Source of the DNA: a virus
Taxonomy: Duplodnaviria > Heunggongvirae > Uroviricota > Caudoviricetes
Reading direction: 5' to 3' (one strand)
Virus record (IMG/VR): IMGVR_UViG_2548876858_000019
Length of the DNA stretch: 13,031 bases
The notes under the pieces were generated by a model. That model saw only the letters and a program-made list of their open reading frames with translations. It did no database searches and was not told the DNA's origin. Below, piece after piece: positions 1,249-13,031 of the stretch. The position numbers and the translations under genes were made by a program. How positions within the stretch are numbered: the first letter of the stretch is position 1; each line of letters opens with the position of its first letter.

Positions 1249-1330
1249 ACGTAAACTTTTTCCGGTTGTTGTCGATATCTCCATATCCCTCAACCGGAAA
1301 ATAATAATACAAAAATGCTTAGCCCTGCTA

Positions 1331-1564
1331 ATAATCGCCTAATCCAAACGCCTCATTCATGTTCTGGTACAGTCGCTCAAATGTACTCCGGATACGCGGT
1401 TCGCTGATTTCCAGGACATTGTCGTCATTCAGCGACCTGTCCCGTGTATCACGGGCCTGCGAATTCATCAAGGAATGCATTGCAGAGTGAAGTATCGAGT
1501 CACGCCATATTTCGCTATCAGGATTCTGTATGATGGTTACATCGCCCGGCCCAGGGCTGTTTAG
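1331..1564 (-). pseudogene. possible 3' remnant of a disrupted gene (start-less open frame)
   Basis: Minus-strand frame open for about 78 codons, ending ...EISEPRIRSTFERLYQNMNEAFGLGDY at TAG (1328-1330), protein-like composition but no upstream start; lies between cscB and the att repeat. Confidence 0.2.
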
Positions 1565-2236: not shown

Positions 2237-3262
2237 ATGGATAACCCGGACAAAACTCCCGTACCTGAGGTCACTGTAGCAACAGAACCGCAGCCCTCTG
2301 CAGAATGCTTCACCTTTGGCGATCCCATTCCGGTACTGGACCGGCGCGAGCTGCTTGATTATGTGGAGTGCGTACAGATTGATCGCTGGTATGAACCGCC
2401 GGTCAGTTTTGCCGGGCTGGCACGTACCTACCGCGCTGCCGTGCATCACAGTTCACCAATTGCTGTTAAGCGTGACATTCTCAGCAGCACCTTCATCCCA
2501 CACCGCTTGCTCAGCCAGCAGTCTTTCGCCCGTTTCGTTCAGGATTATCTGGTGTTTGGTAATGCTTATCTGGAAAAGCGCACCAACTGGCTGGGTGATG
2601 TCCTCTCACTGGAGCCAGCGCTGGCAAAGTATACCCGGCGCGGCGTTGACCTAGAATCCTACTGGTTTGTGAACTACGGCCTGACGATGCAGCCTTATGA
2701 GTTCACCAGAGGCAACATTTTTCATCTGATGGAGCCGGATATTAACCAAGAGATTTACGGGCTGCCCGGTTATCTCTCCGCCATTCCGTCAACCCTGCTC
2801 AACGAGTCCGCAACGCTGTTCCGTCGGAAATATTACATCAACGGCAGCCATGTAGGCTTCATCATGTACATGACCGACGCTGCGCAGAATCAGGAGGATG
2901 TGAACAACATCCGCAAGGCAATGAAAAGTGCCAAAGGACCGGGCAATTTTCGCAATCTCTTTATGTACTCACCCAATGGCAAAAAAGATGGCATCCAGAT
3001 CATCCCCCTATCCGAAGTTGCGGCGAAAGATGAGTTTCTGAACATCAAGAACGTGAGCCGTGATGACATGATGGCAGCGCACCGTGTGCCACCGCAGATG
3101 ATGGGAATCATGCCGAGTAACGTTGGGGGGTTTGGAGATGTAGAAAAAGCCAGCCGTGTTTTTGTTCGCAACGAACTGATGCCGCTACAGAAGCGACTGC
3201 AGGAACTGAACGACTGGTGTGGCGAGAAAATAATTAGTTTTGAACCTTATACACTTGAGTAA
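2237..3262 (+). CDS. phage portal protein, P2 Q / PBSX-type
   Basis: 341 aa from ATG 2237 (track ORF starts at TTG 2135; trimmed); portal-like clip motif RDDMMAAHRVPPQMMGI; length close to P2 Q as I recall it; ends at TAA 3260-3262 before a terminator. Confidence 0.7.
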   Translation: MDNPDKTPVPEVTVATEPQPSAECFTFGDPIPVLDRRELLDYVECVQIDRWYEPPVSFAGLARTYRAAVHHSSPIAVKRDILSSTFIPHRLLSQQSFARFVQDYLVFGNAYLEKRTNWLGDVLSLEPALAKYTRRGVDLESYWFVNYGLTMQPYEFTRGNIFHLMEPDINQEIYGLPGYLSAIPSTLLNESATLFRRKYYINGSHVGFIMYMTDAAQNQEDVNNIRKAMKSAKGPGNFRNLFMYSPNGKKDGIQIIPLSEVAAKDEFLNIKNVSRDDMMAAHRVPPQMMGIMPSNVGGFGDVEKASRVFVRNELMPLQKRLQELNDWCGEKIISFEPYTLE

Positions 3263-3263
3263 T

Positions 3264-3289
3264 AAAAAAGCCACTGAAGTGGCTTTTTT
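3264..3289. terminator. bidirectional rho-independent terminator between portal gene and gene Y
   Basis: AAAAAAGCCAC-TGAA-GTGGCTTTTTT: GC stem with 4-nt loop flanked by A6 and T6, so a U-run follows the hairpin on both strands; 1 bp after portal stop and 8 bp after Y stop. Confidence 0.65.
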
Positions 3290-3291
3290 AT

Positions 3292-4257
3292 TTAATCGGG
3301 AAGGTTACGTAAATCGATATATGAGAAAAATGCGGCACCTTTCTCAGTTAACTCGTATCGAAGATATCGATTTTCCATTATTGGCGTTGTTTTGAGTAGG
3401 CCATGGACCATCATTAACGTGCAAACATTTCTAACCAAAAAACCAGCTAAGTCAGTCGAATTTGATCTTAACCCAGAAAGAATAGTTCCTCTATACAGCA
3501 AAATGAGTCGCATTGCTGTTGTTTTAACTGGCTCTGGAGTTTCGGATAATTTTGTCGGGATCGTTAACTGTGTATTTTCAAATAGCTTATATATTTTACT
3601 GAACTCTTCCTCAGATGGTTTTTTTACTATAGCTTTACTTTCAGGAGAACGTGCAGCTCTGAGAAGTTCAACCTCAGATTTTAAAGCTTCATTTTCCTTC
3701 GTTAGTTTAGATATTTGTTCTATTAACACACTTGACTCTGATATTTCCTTTCCAGAAACCCACCCAAGGAGATTTCTCTCGACACCAATTTGAGGAAGTG
3801 TCTTATAAATTGATATTTGTATATCTTTAATATCCCGAAAAAATTCCACCGGATACCCCTTGACCTTTTGTTTGAAAGCTTCATATTTTGTCGGGTTATC
3901 TAATTCAAGAACTTCCTTACCAACTGTTTTAACTTTTTCATCTAGATATTCGTCATCAATGACTATCGAAAATAGAGGTTTGTTTGTACTTAAAGCATAA
4001 TCATATTCGAGCTCTGTATAGCAATAATCACTGCCGGGAGCAATCGTTCCATAACGCCCTCCCAGAATAAGGATGTAGATATCTGACTCATCTATCCAGC
4101 GCTTAATAATTTCTAACTGGCTTCTGTCTCCAGGCTTAAATAGCTCCATTCCCGCAGGTATATGCCCGGCAGTTAATATGGCACTTACCGCAGCTTGCCT
4201 TTCTTCAATGAGGTCTGTAAAAGTTGATGAAATGAAAACTTGAAATTTCCTATTCAT
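3292..4257 (-). CDS. DUF4062-like domain protein with coiled-coil and C-terminal domain of unknown function (candidate defence cargo)
   Basis: 321 aa from ATG 4255-4257; N-terminus MNRKFQVFISSTFTDLIEERQAAV...ILILGGRYGTIAPGSDYCYTELEYDYA fits the FISSTF/ER/GGRYG/TExEY signature I associate with DUF4062; central coiled-coil (ISKLTKENEALKSEVELLRAA); visibly AT-rich; terminators on both sides. Confidence 0.8.
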   Translation of the reverse strand: MNRKFQVFISSTFTDLIEERQAAVSAILTAGHIPAGMELFKPGDRSQLEIIKRWIDESDIYILILGGRYGTIAPGSDYCYTELEYDYALSTNKPLFSIVIDDEYLDEKVKTVGKEVLELDNPTKYEAFKQKVKGYPVEFFRDIKDIQISIYKTLPQIGVERNLLGWVSGKEISESSVLIEQISKLTKENEALKSEVELLRAARSPESKAIVKKPSEEEFSKIYKLFENTQLTIPTKLSETPEPVKTTAMRLILLYRGTILSGLRSNSTDLAGFLVRNVCTLMMVHGLLKTTPIMENRYLRYELTEKGAAFFSYIDLRNLPD

Positions 4258-4518
4258 TTTTTATCCATATAGAGTTATTGTCATCTAACATACCTACAAA
4301 ATGCTATAGGTAAATTTAAGTTGGTATTATTAGTCTTTTACTAGTATCTAATGCTGAAAAAGTTGATGAAAGAAAGACATTAGACGCAGATACCAACATC
4401 AGAGCATAATCATATGATATAGGTTAAAGCGTGTTCAAGACCGATTAACGTAAGTTCCCTAGATCTCCCCTCAGCGCGAGCAGCCCCGCCCGCCTGCCCG
4501 CTTCGCTTAACAGAATGG

Positions 4519-4632
4519 TTTTCATGCACCCCGTAAATCGCCTCAGGAGCCGCCACACAAGGGCTTTCACGTCAAAAATGATGCATGAGACTCATGCGTT
4601 TTCATGCGCCATAGACATGCACTCATGCGCTC
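4519..4632. repeat. cluster of CATGC-containing direct repeats (TTTTCATGC x2, ACTCATGCG x2, six CATGC cores)
   Basis: Seen at 4519-4527, 4599-4607 (TTTTCATGC) and 4589-4597, 4621-4629 (ACTCATGCG), plus further CATGC at 4583 and 4616; intergenic between Delta terminator and Y promoter region. Confidence 0.35.
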
Positions 4633-4656
4633 TCAGGCCAGCCAGGAAAAAGGCGT

Positions 4657-4683
4657 AAAAAATCCCGGTGCCGGGCCGGGATT
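4657..4683 (-). terminator. rho-independent terminator of the sid-delta operon
   Basis: AATCCCGG-(7 nt)-CCGGGATT hairpin 4661-4683, followed on the minus strand by TTTTTTACGCC; 21 bp downstream of the Delta stop. Confidence 0.6.
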
Positions 4684-4703
4684 AGGTAGGCGTTTTTTGC
4701 TAA

Positions 4704-4976
4704 TCAGACAGGGATTTGCTGGCGGCTTGATAACTTTGATGCAGAGCCATAGCGATTGAGCGTTTGCTGTTGTTTTTCCGGCATTTGTGCTTTGTCTGAT
4801 TCCTGTTCATTGCGCCGGGGCTTCATAATTATCTTATCCACACTTTCCAGAGCGGTAAATGTGCAGGAACATTCAAGATTCTGGCACTGATACCATGAGC
4901 GTTTAACCGACGGTGCTTCATAGGCGGTGGTTCTGGCGTGTGCAACGGTGCCGCATTCAGGACATTTCAGCGCCAT
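4704..4976 (-). CDS. Ogr/Delta-family zinc-finger late-gene transcription activator
   Basis: 90 aa, MALKCPECGTVAHARTTAY...YQCQNLECSCTF: C-x2-C...C-x4-C motif and overall pattern of P2 Ogr / P4 Delta; ATG overlaps the TGA of the upstream sid-like gene (ATGA). Confidence 0.85.
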   Translation of the reverse strand: MALKCPECGTVAHARTTAYEAPSVKRSWYQCQNLECSCTFTALESVDKIIMKPRRNEQESDKAQMPEKQQQTLNRYGSASKLSSRQQIPV

Positions 4977-5737
4977 CAGATACCCTCCATATCACGGTTA
5001 CGTTTCTGCAGCTCTTCACGTTCCTGACGGATCTTCATTTTGTGAAGGGCCGCCGGTGACGGGATTTTGCTTAAATCGACACGAGCCGCATAATCCGGCG
5101 CAACGCCCGCCAGTTTAAACACAGGGTCCAGTTCCGGCATCGCAGTGTTAGCAAGAGCCGGTTTGGTGATATGTTTGTGAATAAAGTCTTTCAGCAGTGT
5201 GTCCGGGTCATTAACTGAATTCACCACCCCCACAACGGCACTGGCTTCCCGCCCCATTGTGGTTTTGAGCAGGCTCAGTGTCTGGATTAACGCCTTACCA
5301 TGCGCCTGCATGAAGTCTTCCCAGATTTGCTTTGCGCGAATTTCCACAAGGGTGTTATGTGCGCTGATATACTGCCCGGCTAATTTCCCGGCTTCCTGCG
5401 GTAATAAGGCATTTTCGCTTTCCTGAGCTGCCAGCAGTTCATCAAAATCCTCAAGCGTTTCTCGTCCCAGCGCAATTTCCGTGCGCAGTTTTTTCATTTC
5501 CTTTGAGACTACGCCCTGACTTTCACGAAACAGCGTGCGCCACTCCTCATTCAGCGCGTTCGTCGTGGCTTCCATTTCAGCCCGGCGCTGGCGGATTGTC
5601 GCAATATTATCCGCTGCCGCTTTCTGCCGACGACGTGCTTCAAGCCATGCGCTTCTGGCTGTATTCAGGGTTTCCATTGCCTGCTGCGTTACAGCCGGAA
5701 AAGTGGAAAGGTTGTTATTCTCTGCGGTGTTGTTCAT
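4976..5737 (-). CDS. Sid/Psu-family protein (P4 capsid size determination-like; Psu-like not excluded)
   Basis: 253 aa, coiled-coil rich; segment AGQYISAHNTLVEIRAKQIWEDFMQAHGKALIQTL matches the Psu/Sid family pattern as I recall it; sits directly upstream of and coupled to delta as sid does in P4; AGGAGA Shine-Dalgarno before ATG 5735-5737. Confidence 0.65.
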   Translation of the reverse strand: MNNTAENNNLSTFPAVTQQAMETLNTARSAWLEARRRQKAAADNIATIRQRRAEMEATTNALNEEWRTLFRESQGVVSKEMKKLRTEIALGRETLEDFDELLAAQESENALLPQEAGKLAGQYISAHNTLVEIRAKQIWEDFMQAHGKALIQTLSLLKTTMGREASAVVGVVNSVNDPDTLLKDFIHKHITKPALANTAMPELDPVFKLAGVAPDYAARVDLSKIPSPAALHKMKIRQEREELQKRNRDMEGI

Positions 5738-5771
5738 GACTTCTCCTGCCGGGTTGGTTCGTTACGTCAAT

Positions 5772-5827
5772 TGTGTCGTGACTGACACAAGCGCACTATC
5801 GGCGCTCAGTGTGTGGTGGCTGGCACA
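5772..5827 (-). promoter_or_regulatory. Psid-like late promoter with two Delta-box dyads
   Basis: TGT-N12-ACA at 5772-5789 (within TTGTGTCGTGACTGACACAA) and at 5810-5827; centres 38 bp apart and about 43 and 81 bp upstream of the sid-like ATG, consistent with activator sites near -18 and -55. Confidence 0.55.
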
Positions 5828-5914
5828 ACGGGCGTTTGCGGTTATTCAGACGCGGCCATGACAGCCAGCCAGATAAAAATGCCTCTGTTTCAGCCTGCTT
5901 TATGTCCCGGATGC

Positions 5915-6110
5915 GGTGAAACAGGTGGAACAGGTGTTACAGCATTGTTTTGTAAAACATTTATATGCACATCACAGGTGAAACATCGCAGGTAACAAGG
6001 TGGAACAGCGGATCGGCTGGCGTTCCACCTGTTCCACCTCACTATTTCAGAAGGTGAAACAGGTTTAGCCCTTGTAAAATACGGGTGTTCCACCTGTTTC
6101 ACCTGTTACC
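5915..6110. repeat. iteron array, candidate replication origin / crr-like site
   Basis: At least nine copies of the 9-mer GGTG(A/G)AACA or its complement TGTT(C/T)CACC: plus orientation at 5915, 5924, 5977, 5999, 6053; minus orientation at 6021/6030, 6086, 6095, with tandem pairs; AT-rich stretch 5941-5970 in the middle; 28 bp downstream of the primase stop. Confidence 0.7.
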
Positions 6111-6137
6111 CTTAATAAATAAGACTCACGCAAAGCC

Positions 6138-8810
6138 TTAACCCGGCACCTCGCTGTTGAAGACATAGAGTCTGCGGGGATTCATCTCTGGCGGGCGAAT
6201 GGTTGTCTGCAGCTTGCCATCGGTGGAGGGCAGCAGGTATCCACGATCCGCGCACAGACGCGCCACCTTGCGCGGGTCAAATCCCCGGCAGATTTCTTTC
6301 CAGCCGGACGGCATGACGTAGAACGTGGTGACGGCCTCCGTGCCCTGCGCGGTACTGCCTTTCTCCACCCTGCGCCAGCCCACCATATTGCCGGGGCGGT
6401 TACGCTCGTCGTGCCAGTCAGCAAAGCGGCTGTACTGATTCGCGGTAAAGAAGCTGCGTACCTGCTCCAGTGCGGCAATATCTTCCTGATTGGCGGTGTG
6501 CCCGCGATCTTTCAGCCATGCGTTCAGGCAGACGCGGGTTGCCCGCAGCGCTTCACCCTCAGGCCAGCCGGTAATACCCAGCCGGGTTGCCAGCTCGCCC
6601 GCCATCGCCACCAGTGCAAAGCGGTTCACAGCCCGGCCTACCTGATTACCCGCATCTTTCGGGGTCAGGGCGGCTGTATATTCCTTCATCAGTGACTTTG
6701 CCTGTGCCGTCAGCCCGTTAAGGTCAGCGGTCAGGGCTTTCAGCCACTCCCTGAACGGCGAACCGTAGTAGCTGGACGTGGCCCACTCCAGATGTTCCGC
6801 CAGAGCCTTGCCGCTGTCGAAGCCGTGCAGCTCCTCAAATACGCCAAATTTCCCGGAATCGCTGGGGATCTGGATCATCCTGACTTCCATCCCGGCAAAG
6901 GTACGCTCACCGGCTTTTGCCGCATGTTCGGTCAGTGACAGCTCGCCGGTTGAAAAGAACAGCAGCCGCCACTGCTTACGGGTGCGCAGCTCACCGTCCG
7001 TACCGGCACGGCCCTTGCCCTGACCGTTTGCCAGCATGTAGGCGATATTACCCGCCTCGCGTCCGTCCACCTCCCGGATCTCATCGAGCATCATGGCGGC
7101 ATCGTTGCGGCGGCTGGCGCATCCCTCCAGCGCGTTGCCGGTTGCCCGCCACGTCTGCCAGTAATCAGGCCCGCCACAAACGGAGGTTGCCGCTTTCATG
7201 GTGGTGGTCTTACCGTCAGTCGATTCCCCCTTGAGGTGGTAGCCGCCGCCGTCCATCCCAACCAGCCGTAACAGGGGTGCAGCAAAGGCCAGACTGACGG
7301 CAAACGCCACGCGGGAGTTACCGGTGCAGTAACGGGAAACGTGCTCCCGCCATTCCTCCGTTGTACCTGACACACGGAAATCGCGCCCCTGCACGGAAGT
7401 GGTCTGGAGAATGACACCCTCTGCACCTTCACCGCTGACCTCATCCTGCAGGACGTAAACCTGACCATGCCAGCCAGTGCGGCTGACGCAGGTCACGCGG
7501 CGTTCCGGTTTACACAGCGAGATATATTCCATCAGGCGGGCGCGGGCCTCACCGGTGGTGCTGATATAGGACAGCCCGTTAACCAGCAGTACCCGGCGTA
7601 GTTCCTCACCGCTACCACTGAGCATTTCCATCGGCATCGCCCAGCGGCGGCGCTCTCCCCATGTATCTTCCCACTCCAGCAGTCGCCCGAAATTACCGCC
7701 ATCAGCATCGCAGGTGATTGCCGTCACGCGCAACGGGTTGCATATTTTGACGTTCTGGATCTCCGTCTCACCGTTGCGCTGTACCTGTTTTTCATACCAG
7801 AGATATTCCTGGGTAAGACGGAACCCGTGCGGCAACTGCGTGCGGCCTTCTCCGCACAGTACAAGACCGTTACGAAAGGCTTCACGGGCACGTGTAATAC
7901 CGTGCTCACGGTGGAAGTCATTCCAGTCAGCTTTAATTTCTCCCGGTGGCAGCGTCACCCAGCCACCGACTGATTTTGCCGCCCGTTCAGCAAAGGATCT
8001 GCCGGGATTCTCGCCCCCGTCCTGAAAATCGTTATCACCGGCGATGATAATTTTTACCTCAGGCCAGCGTGCCCGCAGCGCCTGTGCGACGTTGGGCAGG
8101 TTGCCCGCCGATATGGCCGCCACTACGCATCCGGCGGTGAGCTGGCTTACCGTCAGCGCCGTGGCGTAACCTTCGGTAATCACCACCTGTACCGGCGGTT
8201 CAGACGGTAACGGGCTGAGCGCCACAAACGCGCCTTTCATCGTGCTGCCGGGCAGTATGCTTTTTTCACCCGTCGGGGCGATAAGCTGTGCACCGGTCAC
8301 GGCTCCGGCGTTCGTCGTGAGCGGTAACAGCAGGGAACCGGCAGGGAAATCCTTACCACTGATATGCTGCACGCTCCCGGTCAGGGAGGCCGGGTATCCG
8401 GCGAACCCTTTTCCGGTCAGATAGGGGCTTTCTCCCGTGTGACTCTCTTTCATCAGGGCCGCCACGGTAAGGCTCATATCGCGTTTAGGGGCTTTTTGCC
8501 TGGCGGGCTTAACGGGCAGTTCCTGCACATCCGGCACATTAAGCACCTGCGCCACCTCCTGCGCTGCCTTTCTGATGCCGTAACCGGTTATGAGCTTAAC
8601 CAGATCCAGACCATCACCATTGCCGCACTGGCTGCAAATCCACGTCCCGCGCCCGTCGAGGTCATCGAGGCGGAAGCGATCCTTGCCCCCACATTTCGGG
8701 CAGGGACCGTGCCTGCCGTTTTCAGGTACATCAATACGCAGCATCTGCAGAATGACGGGCCATTTTCCCCGCGCTGCGGCTGAAATCTGCGTAACCGTCT
8801 GTGTTGTCAT
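6138..8810 (-). CDS. P4 alpha-type primase-helicase (zinc finger + Toprim + P-loop NTPase)
   Basis: 890 aa; N-terminal HGPCPKCGG...CSQCGNGDG zinc finger; Toprim-like ITEGYATALTV and IIAGDNDFQDGG; Walker A GESTDGKTT; GGGGGA Shine-Dalgarno; ATG overlaps the TGA of the upstream ORF. Confidence 0.85.
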   Translation of the reverse strand: MTTQTVTQISAAARGKWPVILQMLRIDVPENGRHGPCPKCGGKDRFRLDDLDGRGTWICSQCGNGDGLDLVKLITGYGIRKAAQEVAQVLNVPDVQELPVKPARQKAPKRDMSLTVAALMKESHTGESPYLTGKGFAGYPASLTGSVQHISGKDFPAGSLLLPLTTNAGAVTGAQLIAPTGEKSILPGSTMKGAFVALSPLPSEPPVQVVITEGYATALTVSQLTAGCVVAAISAGNLPNVAQALRARWPEVKIIIAGDNDFQDGGENPGRSFAERAAKSVGGWVTLPPGEIKADWNDFHREHGITRAREAFRNGLVLCGEGRTQLPHGFRLTQEYLWYEKQVQRNGETEIQNVKICNPLRVTAITCDADGGNFGRLLEWEDTWGERRRWAMPMEMLSGSGEELRRVLLVNGLSYISTTGEARARLMEYISLCKPERRVTCVSRTGWHGQVYVLQDEVSGEGAEGVILQTTSVQGRDFRVSGTTEEWREHVSRYCTGNSRVAFAVSLAFAAPLLRLVGMDGGGYHLKGESTDGKTTTMKAATSVCGGPDYWQTWRATGNALEGCASRRNDAAMMLDEIREVDGREAGNIAYMLANGQGKGRAGTDGELRTRKQWRLLFFSTGELSLTEHAAKAGERTFAGMEVRMIQIPSDSGKFGVFEELHGFDSGKALAEHLEWATSSYYGSPFREWLKALTADLNGLTAQAKSLMKEYTAALTPKDAGNQVGRAVNRFALVAMAGELATRLGITGWPEGEALRATRVCLNAWLKDRGHTANQEDIAALEQVRSFFTANQYSRFADWHDERNRPGNMVGWRRVEKGSTAQGTEAVTTFYVMPSGWKEICRGFDPRKVARLCADRGYLLPSTDGKLQTTIRPPEMNPRRLYVFNSEVPG

Positions 8811-9190
8811 ATTTCCCCCTGATACAGCGATACACCCGAGCTGCAGAAGTCATCAAATGCCGCCGGAAGTGTGCGGTACAGCTCCGCCATCACTTCACAG
8901 CCGCGCACAGTCAGTACCGGTGGCGCGGTCAGCAATGATGGCTCCAGCATGTCAGTCAGCAGCGCCAGTGCAGCCGCTGCTCCCTGTGCTTCGCCATATT
9001 CGTTAATCAGTGCGCACTCGATATGCAGGGCAATGGCCATTTCAATACGTTCAACCGTCAGGCTGTGCGGACCATAGTGATCGCAGCCGGTTTCGGTCAG
9101 CGCTTTCTGGCGCCAGGCCGATGCAATAGCCCGCCGGTAAAGCGCAGTGGTCATTTCTGCCGGAAAAATAGAAACCTGCGGCTGGTTCAT
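8807..9190 (-). CDS. hypothetical protein (replication-module small ORF)
   Basis: 127 aa; strong AAGGAGG Shine-Dalgarno 7 nt before ATG; ATGA overlaps at both ends with neighbouring ORFs; no recognisable motif. Confidence 0.5.
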   Translation of the reverse strand: MNQPQVSIFPAEMTTALYRRAIASAWRQKALTETGCDHYGPHSLTVERIEMAIALHIECALINEYGEAQGAAAALALLTDMLEPSLLTAPPVLTVRGCEVMAELYRTLPAAFDDFCSSGVSLYQGEI

Positions 9191-10393: not shown

Positions 10394-10603
10394 TTATTTA
10401 TCAGCATCTGAGGATTGAGCTTTTACCCACTGTCTAATTTCTTGTGCATCGTAAACAGTTACCCGTTTTGAAATACGTGTGGATTTTGGAAATTCAGGAT
10501 TGTTTTTTTCCCAGCGCCAGAGAGTAACTGTGCTTACTTGCAAAAAGTCAGCAGTAGCCCGTGGGCGGGCATGCCCGGTGATAGGGTAAGTTTTTAATGT
10601 CAT
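10394..10603 (-). CDS. alpA: AlpA/Vis-family phage transcriptional regulator
   Basis: 69 aa; TADFLQVSTVTLWRWEKNNPEFPKSTRISKRVTVYDAQEIRQWV fits the AlpA-type helix-turn-helix pattern; typical size and position next to a P4-type integrase. Confidence 0.7.
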   Translation of the reverse strand: MTLKTYPITGHARPRATADFLQVSTVTLWRWEKNNPEFPKSTRISKRVTVYDAQEIRQWVKAQSSDADK

Positions 10604-10710: not shown

Positions 10711-11685
10711 TTAAAATCTTCCTGCTTTAGATGAGCTAAGACATTCTTTTATCTTATCTTTTCCAAGTTCAACCTTTGTTTTTGGATTGTTTCTTTCTGC
10801 CACGATTTTATCTGCCCACGCGTCAATAGTCAGTTTTCCTCGTTTTCCATTGCAAGATGCTGGGTCATTTAGTAACCAATAAATAGCTGCTTTGTACACT
10901 GCCTCTCTTTTTGTTGCTGATGCTTCAACATTACCATGCACTCTTCGGATGCTTTCGATGCTGGATACACCACCATTCACATAGCTGGGTAGCTCTTTGC
11001 CAACACCGTTATCTAATTTTTCTATTTGGTATCTTGTTAAATAGATATCATCCAGTGTTATATTTCCAATAATATTTTTATTAGATGGAGATACTAATCC
11101 CTCTATTGATGATAAGCCTTCGAAAGGGGACATTGCTAATATTACCCACTCATCACTGCCAAATGCAGCATTAGTGAATGGCATATTAGCTTCTTTAAAA
11201 GAAATATCATGTGCTAATAGCCTTGCTTTACCATATACCTTTAGTTCTTTGTATAATGAAGATGTTGGGCTGATGACACATATAGACCACAATCCAGAAA
11301 GTAAGATTAATGGGCTTTTTATATTTGGTTTGTTTTCTAAATGGTATATTTGTTTTGGAGGTGAAAATGGCTTATCTTCTGTATAATCAATATCGAATTT
11401 TGCTTTTGGTATGAAATGGCTTAATGCAGATTTATTACTATAGTTTAATACTCTGGGTGGGTACATGTTTTCCCAATCTTTAAAATCTCCACCTTTACGC
11501 ATCATCATTAGCGCAGCTTCGAAACCATTTAATTCTAAGCAAAATTCGATAATTCCAATTTGAGCAAAATGGATAAGGTCATCAATTTGGCAATTAAGTA
11601 GTTCAGCAGCTCGTTTTAGGGAGCAAAATTCCATTACAGGAATACTATTCCTTTCCCAAACATTTAATCGTGTATTATCGCTCAT
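10711..11685 (-). CDS. hypothetical protein X, AT-rich, between integrase and alpA
   Basis: Track ORF starts at TTG 11763 overlapping the int stop; ATG 11683-11685 has a good AGGTGA Shine-Dalgarno and gives 324 aa starting MSDNTRLNVWERNSIPVMEF; no motif I can name; visibly AT-rich. Confidence 0.6.
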   Translation of the reverse strand: MSDNTRLNVWERNSIPVMEFCSLKRAAELLNCQIDDLIHFAQIGIIEFCLELNGFEAALMMMRKGGDFKDWENMYPPRVLNYSNKSALSHFIPKAKFDIDYTEDKPFSPPKQIYHLENKPNIKSPLILLSGLWSICVISPTSSLYKELKVYGKARLLAHDISFKEANMPFTNAAFGSDEWVILAMSPFEGLSSIEGLVSPSNKNIIGNITLDDIYLTRYQIEKLDNGVGKELPSYVNGGVSSIESIRRVHGNVEASATKREAVYKAAIYWLLNDPASCNGKRGKLTIDAWADKIVAERNNPKTKVELGKDKIKECLSSSKAGRF

Positions 11686-11759
11686 CACGTCACCTGTATG
11701 CACATATGGTAAAATGGGGCGAATAGCAGACTTTACTACTATTAGCCATTTTCTTATTT

Positions 11760-13031
11760 TCAAACAACGCGTAGTTTTTTCATTTTATAGGGGGCAATAT
11801 ATCTATCAGTGTTAGCTTCAATATAATTAGACCACCATTGCATCATCCGACGACGTTCATGCATATGCTGAGCTAAGTGTACATAAGCGGCTCGCACTTC
11901 ATTTCGTTCTTGATGGCTCATTTGCCGTTCTACTGCATCCCTCGACCATAAGCCTGATTCTGTCAGGGCTGAGCACGCCATTGCCCTAAATCCATGAAGG
12001 CAAATGTCCACCTGCGTGTCGTACCCCATAATTCTTAATGACTTATTAACTGTGTTCTCACTCATTGGTTTGTAAGGGTTACTATCTCCGGGGAAAATAA
12101 GTTCATACTCACCACTTATTTTTTTAATAGCTTCGAGAACATCAATAGCTTCATTAGATAATGGAACATAATGAATACTGCCCATTTTTGCCCCACGCTC
12201 TGAATATTTTACCCCATCAATTCTTTTTCTTTGAGCAGGAATAGTCCACATTGCATTTTCAAAATTAATTTCCTCCCATCTTGCGTGTCTCAGTTCACTG
12301 GAGCGAACAAAAGTATGAAGAGAAAATAATACTGCCAGCTTAGTTAACGGCCTCCCTGTATAGCTATCAATTTTTGATATTAATTCGGGTAATCGTTCTA
12401 ACGGAAGTGCAGGGCGATGCTTTATTTTGGGGCTGGAAATTGCTCCTCTTAGATCATGGGTAGGATTGTATTCAACAATTCCACGCTGAATAGCGTACCG
12501 GAAAACGCTTGCAAGAGTAGTTTTCACTCTTCCTGTTGTTGCTCCAATTCCCTGATCACTCATCCTCACCAATAATGGCAACAGGTCACTTGTTTTTAAT
12601 GAGTCGATGGGTTTATTTCCGATATATGGGAAAATATGATTTTCCATTTCTCTTAAAATTTTAGTGCGGGTAATCTCTTTCCATGAGGGATGGCCTATAG
12701 AGCCTTTATGCCACTCTAAAGCGATTGTCTGGAATGTAGCAGAGGCGGGTTCTGTTGGCGCTGCTTTTTTAGATACTCTGGGATCAACACCGTCGGCTAA
12801 AAGTTGCCTTGCTTCATCTCTACGCTTACGGGCAAGTGCCAGCGAAACGTCTGGGAAAACGCCCAAAGCCAGCGTAGCTTGTTTGCCGTTAAATCTGTAG
12901 TTCATTCGCCATGCCTTGGTCCCGTTCTTTTTAACTAAAAGATACAGGCTTCCCCCATCCGTCAGTTTGTAGTCTGTTTCTTTGGGTTTAGCGTTTTCAA
13001 CTTTCTTGGGTGATAGCTCATTTAGTGCCAT
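11760..13031 (-). CDS. tyrosine recombinase, P4 / CP4-57 IntA-type integrase
   Basis: 423 aa; N-terminal arm-binding region (YKLTDGGSLYLLVKKNGTKAWRMNYRFNGK); catalytic-region HGFR (HxxR) and tyrosine in RAAYVHL; start codon is the last three bases of the window, facing the presumed tRNA. Confidence 0.9.
   Translation of the reverse strand: MALNELSPKKVENAKPKETDYKLTDGGSLYLLVKKNGTKAWRMNYRFNGKQATLALGVFPDVSLALARKRRDEARQLLADGVDPRVSKKAAPTEPASATFQTIALEWHKGSIGHPSWKEITRTKILREMENHIFPYIGNKPIDSLKTSDLLPLLVRMSDQGIGATTGRVKTTLASVFRYAIQRGIVEYNPTHDLRGAISSPKIKHRPALPLERLPELISKIDSYTGRPLTKLAVLFSLHTFVRSSELRHARWEEINFENAMWTIPAQRKRIDGVKYSERGAKMGSIHYVPLSNEAIDVLEAIKKISGEYELIFPGDSNPYKPMSENTVNKSLRIMGYDTQVDICLHGFRAMACSALTESGLWSRDAVERQMSHQERNEVRAAYVHLAQHMHERRRMMQWWSNYIEANTDRYIAPYKMKKLRVV

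Follow-up and report, generated by a model that had tools for sequence, protein, structure and literature searches.

A DUF4062 gene beside cos in a P4-like satellite: a predicted single-protein NAD+ hydrolase of a known defence type with a divergent sensor domain

What does an AT-rich gene do between the cos site of a phage satellite and a phage portal gene, and how did it come to lie there? The question is raised by positions 3292–4257 of a 13,031-nucleotide stretch of viral DNA (IMG/VR record IMGVR_UViG_2548876858_000019, Caudoviricetes), analysed here as a whole and called the window, which holds a P4-like satellite read on the minus strand. An original prediction, made from the letters alone, had seen in this gene a candidate for an undescribed kind of defence gene, placed where psu should be, to which no biochemical activity could be assigned. 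The open reading frame (ORF) is real: it is intact on the minus strand, starts with ATG, encodes 321 amino acids and is annotated in RefSeq as 'DUF4062 domain-containing protein' (WP_024235421.1). It is also more AT-rich than its neighbours, as first noticed, with a GC content of 37% versus 49–60% in the flanks (0.371 for the gene, or 0.30 at third codon positions (GC3), versus 0.517 for the portal gene, 0.491 for delta, 0.521 for the sid-like gene and 0.605 for alpha). From its sequence and by analogy with homologues studied experimentally, its product is probably a single-protein, abortive-infection hydrolase of nicotinamide adenine dinucleotide (NAD+) of the DUF4062 (Swarozyc/Evangelion) type, which would be autoinhibited at rest and triggered through its C-terminal AUX domain by a ligand made by the phage.

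Family membership, fold and predicted catalytic residue

Two preprints of May–June 2026 (bioRxiv 10.64898/2026.05.01.722283 and 10.64898/2026.06.25.731849) describe single-gene DUF4062 systems, and the kind of gene can therefore no longer be called undescribed. In the first, by Osinski et al., DUF4062 is a TIR-like NAD+ hydrolase (NADase), and the Swarozyc protein KpSwz of Klebsiella pneumoniae (WP_202404386; PDB 10wc, 11cq and 11cv) shields E. coli from many BASEL phages via abortive infection. KpSwz assembles into dimers and oligomers that have helical stalks and are autoinhibited; it is switched on when a phage portal binds to its helix-turn-helix/winged AUX domain; defence requires both the AUX domain and E97 (Osinski et al.). 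The catalytic glutamate lies in a T-E-x-E-[YF] motif, being E97 in KpSwz and E1008 in TEP1 (Osinski et al.). In the second preprint, by Ibarra-Chavez et al., the Evangelion systems combine a conserved DUF4062 core with a diversified AUX domain, cause NAD+ loss and include lineages carried by satellites. Eva01 needs E87, W162 and its AUX domain, NAD+ falls, and its triggers map to recombination genes, while Eva03 is active in E. coli (Ibarra-Chavez et al.).

The window protein matched the Pfam DUF4062 profile (PF13271) over residues 6–88, covering positions 1–82 of its 82 (E = 2.7e-28, 98.4 bits against a gathering cut-off of 24.7 bits). The motifs VFISSTF, EER, LGGRYG and TELEY were all found, and the N-terminal signature quoted in the original prediction is thus borne out. 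A phmmer comparison with the KpSwz chain 10wc_A gave a match over residues 2–200 (E = 3.7e-26), a profile built from 46 homologues matched the solved KpSwz chain over residues 2–250 (E = 1e-41), and BLASTP against full-length KpSwz (P0121) gave 36% identity over residues 1–199. In these alignments TELE84Y of the window protein pairs with TEKE83F of P0121, which is E97 in the numbering of Osinski et al., and E84 is aligned with the E97A position of chain 10wc_A. We predict E84, encoded at 4006–4008, as the catalytic glutamate. E82, E84, W54, G165–W166 and GGRYG are invariant in the 46 homologues. Likewise, the core pattern of Evangelion (an aromatic N-motif, an acidic E–Y, a Q/W/E set and a junction tryptophan) was found in the window protein as F8/F13, E84–Y85, Q47/W54/E57 and W166, all invariant or nearly so; W166 corresponds by alignment to KpSwz W176, the conserved tryptophan of the intertwining segment that precedes the stalk.

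The family is large, with more than 6700 homologues, mostly of about 320 amino acids; among the best 120 listed, the more distant members are 42–48% identical over their full length. The exact window protein occurs on 542 contigs from several Enterobacteriaceae. A tblastn search of 50,697 phage records retrieved only an Acinetobacter jumbo-phage protein, 26% identical; the P2-like carriers of homologues are prophages, which are absent from this collection. No partner gene was conserved across the contexts of the DUF4062 gene that were compared, in line with a system of one gene.

The AlphaFold2 model of the protein (predicted local distance difference test score of 82.9) divides it into three parts. 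The first, residues 1–165 (3763–4257, minus strand), is made of alternating beta and alpha elements and corresponds by alignment to the TIR-like NADase domain of KpSwz. After the invariant G165–W166 comes a helical stalk, residues 175–202 (3652–3735, minus strand), which aligns with the KpSwz stalk; the coiled coil that had been expected behind the N-terminal domain is this one long helix. The third part, residues 216–321 (3295–3612, minus strand), delimited by the model and by profile comparisons, is the putative sensor domain AUX, and the C-terminal region first described as an uncharacterised domain is indeed a folded one. The best Foldseek matches to the N-terminal domain were catalytic TIR domains, those of the plant nucleotide-binding leucine-rich repeat receptors RPS4, SNC1 and RUN1 and that of SARM1 (E = 2e-4 to 1e-2, template modelling score up to 0.62 when normalised to the target), in a PDB library that ran to April 2026 and did not have the KpSwz structures among its entries. 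The model thus suggests a TIR-like fold, for which no sequence similarity to the Pfam TIR families was detectable. Compared with the KpSwz clade by hhalign, the protein was colinear over 294 columns (probability 100%), with E = 9e-41 for the TIR domain taken by itself, and in the AlphaFold2 models the elements of both follow each other in one order: TIR-like domain, stalk helix, hairpin, winged helix-turn-helix and C-terminal helix.

With the TIR NADases at large (SARM1, the TIR domains of plant TNL receptors, the ThsB/ThsA logic of Thoeris) the DUF4062 proteins share the flavodoxin-like TIR fold, the catalytic glutamate and activation through an oligomeric rearrangement. They differ in that the KpSwz dimer has an AB rather than an AE interface, and in that KpSwz and TEP1 yield only ADP-ribose and nicotinamide, with no signalling nucleotide. 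For the window protein, NAD+ hydrolysis through E84 can now be proposed from the alignments and from the behaviour of its homologues, where the original prediction had seen no assignable activity.

The AUX domain and the proposed trigger

KpSwz and the window protein are both single proteins of about 320 amino acids found on mobile elements or in defence hotspots. Their TIR-like domains are 36% identical over 200 residues with the same catalytic glutamate, GGRYG and GW motifs, and in both a helical stalk is followed by a hairpin and a winged-helix AUX domain in the same order. They part in the AUX domain, which in the window protein is about 16% identical to that of KpSwz and only weakly detectable when taken alone. 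In the AlphaFold2 model, its order is helix, beta-hairpin (230–247), winged helix-turn-helix with the wing at 288–303, and C-terminal helix; compared with the KpSwz model it has an extra helix at 216–228, a shorter hairpin without the W–Y tip and a longer wing. The hairpin reads TIPTKLSETPEPVKT, whereas its KpSwz counterpart is TVGWYDEDRE. The alignment of the two AUX domains is convincing only in the recognition helix and wing ('HGLL...yELTEKG' versus 'LGLL...WKLSPKG'), and phmmer found no match of the window AUX to KpSwz. A weak match to the HxlR-type winged helix-turn-helix protein PA1607 and a Foldseek match to PA1374 were obtained. When AUX alone was searched by phmmer against 1.8 billion representatives, 22 weak matches were returned, mostly fragments of the same family; the DUF4062 N-terminus was retained in three of the ten that were scanned, and no fusion of AUX to another effector was seen among the matches.

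The window protein belongs to a clade of more than 6000 proteins separate from that of KpSwz. With Evangelion it shares the general design of a single gene borne by a mobile genetic element, with a conserved DUF4062 core and a divergent AUX domain; in Evangelion, AUX is required for defence, which proceeds with NAD+ loss and abortive infection. Eva01 differs in being a staphylococcal plasmid gene tied to replication and recombination triggers. Altogether, the window protein is apparently a new sensor lineage of an already known kind of system.

E. coli harbours at least three DUF4062 lineages, the window lineage and two more. One of the latter, in strain LF82 (L021, 7001–7981), lies among genes annotated as belonging to an integrating-conjugative element and shows 76% nucleotide identity to KpSwz. 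The other, WP_001513676.1 from E. coli O9:H10 (L022, 7000–8034), is 40% identical to KpSwz over the full length including AUX, and is thus a closer relative of Swarozyc than the window protein. It occupies the slot between cos and portal of a P2-like prophage, convergent with the portal gene at a distance of 36 bp. It seems likelier than the window protein to be the 'EcDUF4062' tested by Osinski et al. (UniParc UPI0002A39D72).

In the mechanism that we propose, the N-terminal ~165 residues would act as a TIR-like NAD+ hydrolase with E84 as its catalytic residue. By analogy with KpSwz, the protein at rest would be autoinhibited, as a dimer or oligomer in which the TIR-like domains and the stalk (175–202) make the contacts, and AUX (216–321) would serve as the sensor for a ligand made by the phage. 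Binding of this ligand would realign the stalks and switch the NADase on; NAD+ would then be depleted, and the infected cell would die before phage release. The analysis itself shows the family membership, the conserved catalytic and structural residues, the domain layout, the purifying selection on both domains and the hotspot context; that the protein hydrolyses NAD+, that it aborts infections and that AUX acts as its sensor are proposed from experiments on homologues.

As to the ligand, our leading guess, a tentative one, is a structural protein of the virion, for example a foreign portal. The specificity of KpSwz cannot simply be transferred because the window AUX is too diverged, and the trigger must spare P2-type helpers because the lineage lives in P2-like phages and satellites. 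P2-type portals are presumably tolerated by the window protein. Satellite-borne systems are generally permissive to P2 (Rousset et al. 2022, PMC9122126). As the main alternative, the same NADase effector could be coupled to another kind of sensing, with the winged-helix AUX reading phage nucleic acid or intermediates of replication or recombination, as proposed for Eva01. This is suggested by the core of the domain, a winged helix-turn-helix, which is a classical DNA-binding fold, and by the missing W–Y anchor through which KpSwz holds the portal. The fold itself does not decide, however, since the winged helix-turn-helix of KpSwz binds a protein, the portal, and not DNA; moreover, the window sequence is nearer to KpSwz than to Eva01, the latter being judged by its description in the paper. 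We consider nucleic-acid sensing rather unlikely.

Several results weigh against a DUF4062 defence NADase with a ligand-sensing AUX domain. PADLOC-DB 2.0.0, a library older than the 2026 preprints, contained no model for the window protein, its only matches being spurious coiled-coil ones to GajB and Cas11a (E > 0.01), and NCBIfam, which also predates the preprints, gave no match. Eva02, a family member that was tested, gave no protection (Ibarra-Chavez et al.). In the comparison of AUX domains alone, hhalign returned a probability of 30–49% with 16% identity (pairwise E = 2–6e-4), and the hairpin tip residues W238/Y239, which anchor KpSwz to the portal, are absent from the window AUX. An autoinhibited, AUX-triggered NADase nevertheless remains the reading that we prefer.

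The cos-adjacent cargo position

The cos site of the satellite was assigned by homology to P4. Its cohesive-end 19-mer, GGCGGGCGGGGCTGCTCGC, lies at 4476–4494 on the minus strand, with an uncertainty of 1 nucleotide; local alignment to P4 cos places the junction between GCGGGCA and GGCGGGCGGGGCTGCTCGC. A search for the P2/P4 cos 19-mer, exact or with three mismatches, returned nothing, and the site was found by local alignment and with a degenerate motif. The motif is common to six satellites and three P2-like prophages. Next to it, the conserved cos-flanking packaging region, recognised by homology, extends over 4495–4703 (minus strand) and includes the delta terminator at 4657–4683. The delta/cos region occurs in 858 of 5426 complete E. 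coli genomes at 88–92% identity, and homology among satellites ends at about 4467–4483, directly past cos. The DUF4062 gene starts (4257) about 220 bp beyond cos, where P4 has its gop/beta/cII hotspot.

The gene itself was found in only nine of the same 5426 genomes. Seven of the nine copies are identical and sit at a locus on the csc/argW side; the other two are 89.8% identical to it, and the one examined (L002) sits at leuX. At eight related loci that were inspected, the position past cos held different cargo, in seven sets: DRT3a/b; an AAA ATPase with a hypothetical protein; an ABC-three-component system; Dsr2; an MltR-like regulator with IS66; a SIR2 protein with an ATPase; and, in Leclercia, a 534-aa protein with a DUF4062 gene. 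The gene is thus variable hotspot cargo of a P4-like satellite and not part of its core, as had been predicted. In the Leclercia satellites (L008, 8067–9671; L009, 6207–7820), the protein between cos and the DUF4062 gene is 534–537 aa long and has no Pfam domain; it may represent further cargo or an accessory. The DUF4062 protein of these satellites is 93% identical to the window protein. The SIR2-family gene and its ATP-binding partner are the post-cos cargo of L018 (2617–5627), and a pair of the same annotation, on which the likeness rests, lies just past the truncated portal gene in the leuX element (L002, 9843–12763), an arrangement which suggests that leftovers of successive hotspot contents are stacked there.

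Rousset et al. (2022, PMC9122126) describe two cos-adjacent hotspots, P4 gop/beta/cII and P2 gpA–gpQ old/tin, which are a documented reservoir of validated anti-phage systems. The window resembles them in that its cargo lies directly beside cos, varies between similar elements and shares its slot with known defence systems, and homologues of the DUF4062 gene are found within the gpA–gpQ interval that forms the P2 hotspot. Two differences are that the window cargo still has the portal gene of a helper, and that the definition of the P4 hotspot as lying 'between psu and int' does not apply, psu being absent and int being at the opposite end.

The 446-bp gap that had been noted between the gene and delta (4258–4703) exists, but it is composite, one half being satellite cos region and the other half cargo. 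Positions 4475–4703 form the conserved, GC-rich cos region of the satellite (GC 0.555). The AT-rich remainder, 4258–4474 (minus strand, GC 0.327), belongs to the cargo and is homologous only in elements with the DUF4062 gene, namely the leuX element and, in part, a Leclercia satellite (L008). The gene presumably has its promoter there; among the sigma-70-like matches of a promoter scan upstream of the gene, the best has its −35 box at 4438–4433 and its −10 box at 4414–4409 and is not significant. The terminators predicted on both sides of the gene were both found by direct folding, a simple pattern scan having missed the two. The one at 3263–3291, which serves both the DUF4062 gene and the portal gene convergent with it, forms a hairpin (3264–3289) with a folding energy of −18.3 kcal/mol on one strand (z = −6.1) and −16.8 kcal/mol on the other (z = −7.1); since it folds on both strands and is flanked by T-runs on either side, it is bidirectional. 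The delta terminator (4657–4683, minus strand) has an 8-bp GC stem followed by U6, with a modest z of −1.7 in a 59-nucleotide context.

Selection on the gene was measured as the ratio of nonsynonymous to synonymous substitution rates (dN/dS), which is 0.05–0.07 overall, 0.008–0.03 in the TIR-like domain and 0.08–0.14 in AUX. Both domains are under strong purifying selection, and the gene is selectively maintained. These values bear on a reading in which the gene is not a defence gene but an accessory 'moron', a NADase or regulator serving the life cycle of the element itself, or a decaying relic. It is true that temperate phages and satellites carry it, and not a defence island of the chromosome, and that no PADLOC model matches it. 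Purifying selection on both domains, however, excludes a relic, the slot is a reservoir of validated anti-phage systems, with known ones in sister elements, and DUF4062 family members that have been tested defend against phage, so that we regard a non-defence role as extremely improbable. The anti-phage role put forward by the original prediction is strongly expected from the experiments on the family.

The portal gene and the satellite backbone

The gene convergent with the DUF4062 gene (2237–3262, plus strand) encodes an intact portal protein of 341 aa. Its identification as a P2-type portal was correct, with matches to the gpQ-type family TIGR01540 (E = 4e-101) and to phrog_68 (E = 4e-169). 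It has no internal stops and is 82–85% identical in nucleotides and 80–85% identical in amino acids to the portals of P2-like phages. Its first ~20 residues are not P2-like, being acidic (MDNPDKTPVPEV...) versus a basic N-terminus in the phage copies, and no terminase gene or promoter was found upstream of it in the window or by the promoter scan.

The close homologues of the DUF4062 gene that could be placed (at 79%, 65% and 62% identity) each lie in an intact P2/186-like prophage, in the order gpA ... cos, 50–90 bp, DUF4062 gene forward, portal gene backward, terminase gene. The DUF4062 and portal genes are there convergent and 28–43 bp apart. The window has the same arrangement of cos, DUF4062 gene, a 29-bp terminator and a P2-type portal gene. 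From this synteny, the home of the DUF4062 gene would be the slot between cos and gpQ at the extreme left end of P2/186-like genomes. Between the window and the leuX element, identity is 99–100% in sid, in delta and close to cos, but only 83–91% from about 4465 on, in the region upstream of the DUF4062 gene, in that gene itself and in the portal gene. The mosaic boundary falls at about 4465–4494 of the window (15190–15215 of L002), with one substitution inside the cos 19-mer, so that the divergence begins ~10–30 bp past the 19-mer. The block of cos, DUF4062 gene and portal gene apparently reached the satellite by recombination at or ~10–30 bp from cos, the portal gene apparently coming along as a passenger, and the cassette appears to be exchanged at cos between satellites and helper phages. 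Two points tell against such a capture: it is read from identity breakpoints and synteny, and between cos and the start codon (4268–4474) no homology to the three P2-like prophages examined was detectable. Rousset et al. (2022, PMC9122126) raised cos-anchored exchange as a speculation only.

The close association of the two genes raises the possibility that they form a functional two-gene unit, with the portal as a tolerated 'self' ligand, a decoy or a modulator. They are always convergent, at 28–43 bp in the P2-like prophages and 29 bp in the window, they entered satellites together, and KpSwz senses portals. The portal ORF of the window is also intact, and its 3′ part, compared with the leuX remnant, has a dN/dS of 0.017 at a dS of 0.56. 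The low ratio is explained, however, if the alleles diverged in functional phages before capture, the satellite backbones being 99–100% identical: at such a dS it indicates that the divergence arose under selection before separate import, and most simply the portal alleles diverged inside phages before they were imported separately. Likewise, gpQ has a fixed position beside cos in P2-like genomes, which accounts for the adjacency, and the portal gene retains neither a promoter nor the upstream terminase gene. In sister satellites, the portal gene is cut by IS3 at leuX (L002) or reduced to 118 bp in Leclercia (L008) while the DUF4062 gene is intact. A two-gene unit is therefore very unlikely.

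In a related and equally speculative proposal, the DUF4062 sensor and the adjacent gpQ would be a co-inherited self/non-self pair, of which the satellite keeps the portal as a tolerance or decoy factor. Two DUF4062 lineages occupy exactly this cos–portal slot, one of them with an AUX domain of the KpSwz type, which in KpSwz is a portal sensor. If the proposal were true, AUX would ignore the linked portal and fire on foreign ones, including those of competing P2-like helpers, and the 28–43 bp linkage would keep compatible alleles together. We regard it as a long shot, and the portal gene as a passenger remains our preferred reading.

The rest of the satellite is arranged on one strand. Its int gene (11760–13031), an AT-rich orphan gene here called X (10711–11763), alpA (10394–10603), a DUF5375 gene (8807–9190) and alpha (6138–8810; 890 aa, TOPRIM/DUF927) are all on the minus strand, and are followed by a sid-like gene and delta. 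The sid-like gene (4976–5737, minus strand) encodes a capsid-size protein of the Psu/Sid family of 253 aa, named 'phage capsid morphogenesis protein' in RefSeq (Pfam Psu, E = 1.1e-7, above the cut-off; phrog_6165, E = 7.6e-94). The delta gene (4704–4976, minus strand) encodes an Ogr/Delta zinc-finger late activator of 90 aa (Pfam Ogr_Delta, E = 1.1e-16). The order is thus int-X-alpA-...-alpha-sid-delta-cos-cargo, with int at the far end from the cargo, whereas in P4 the sid-delta-psu and alpha operons diverge and int adjoins the hotspot. In relatives of the satellite, the late genes come in the order sid-psu-delta, psu being absent from the window and from strain C21. The proposal that the DUF4062 gene had replaced psu was rejected, because psu in this lineage sits between sid and delta and the gene lies beyond cos.

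The P4-like satellites of E. coli that were compared (window 4704–8810; L004–L006 and L016–L018) fall into two architectures. In that of the window, alpha (890 aa, TOPRIM/DUF927), sid, psu where present, and delta all read in one direction, with the hotspot distant from int. In the other, classical one, int is the neighbour of the hotspot, and alpha, of a 777-aa type, diverges from sid. The late order is sid-psu-delta in both, unlike the sid-delta-psu of P4.

Gene X (10711–11763, minus strand), between int and alpA, has a GC content of 0.35 and a GC3 of 0.25; its ORF of 350 aa is annotated as 324 aa. It gave no Pfam, NCBIfam or PADLOC match and only a weak one to phrog_7144, and its family has 15 members in 5.8 billion proteins, all of them hypothetical proteins of Enterobacterales. 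The interval between int and alpA differs in sister satellites, where ORFs of 825 bp, 639 bp and 292 aa were found; as its content varies, it may be a second cargo slot. At the other end, between cscB and the portal gene (1249–2236), a 50-aa DUF4942 fragment lies at 1328–1480 (minus strand), and 1692–2105 is 78% identical to the sequence that the Leclercia satellites have at this relative position. There are 36 mismatches to strain EC1515, and 30 of these fall to the left of position 1662, in a zone dense in single-nucleotide polymorphisms that ends at 1661. These observations suggest a left boundary of the element near 1660–1690, the boundary itself being inferred solely from where homology with the Leclercia satellites stops (1692). 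A comparison of the int flank with the left end of the element revealed no direct repeats of attachment (att) sites of at least 11 bp. Past position 13031 of the window (L001, 23741–28966), int abuts a lambdoid/KplE1-like prophage (torI, kil, cIII, anti-RecBCD), and the satellite has the csc sucrose operon on its opposite flank; the mobile elements here form a tandem array in the dsdA/argW region.

For the DUF4062 family, the analysis yields a concrete prediction: abortive infection through NAD+ depletion, dependent on E84, by a protein whose sensor domain is new. The interest of the locus lies less in the class of gene, however, than in the recurrent niche between cos and portal, in the transfer from helper to satellite together with a portal gene, and in the architecture of the satellite. 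The window sub-lineage and, separately, a KpSwz-like lineage occupy the one-gene cos–portal slot of P2-like phages. The satellite itself points to a P4-like class, with alpha, sid and delta on one strand and no psu, which a search defined by the interval from psu to int misses. Finally, the near-identical backbones with blocks that differ by ~10%, the breakpoint ~10–30 bp from cos and the helper portal gene dragged along with the cargo would make this locus unusually clean natural evidence that helper phages and satellites swap defence cassettes at a shared cos.

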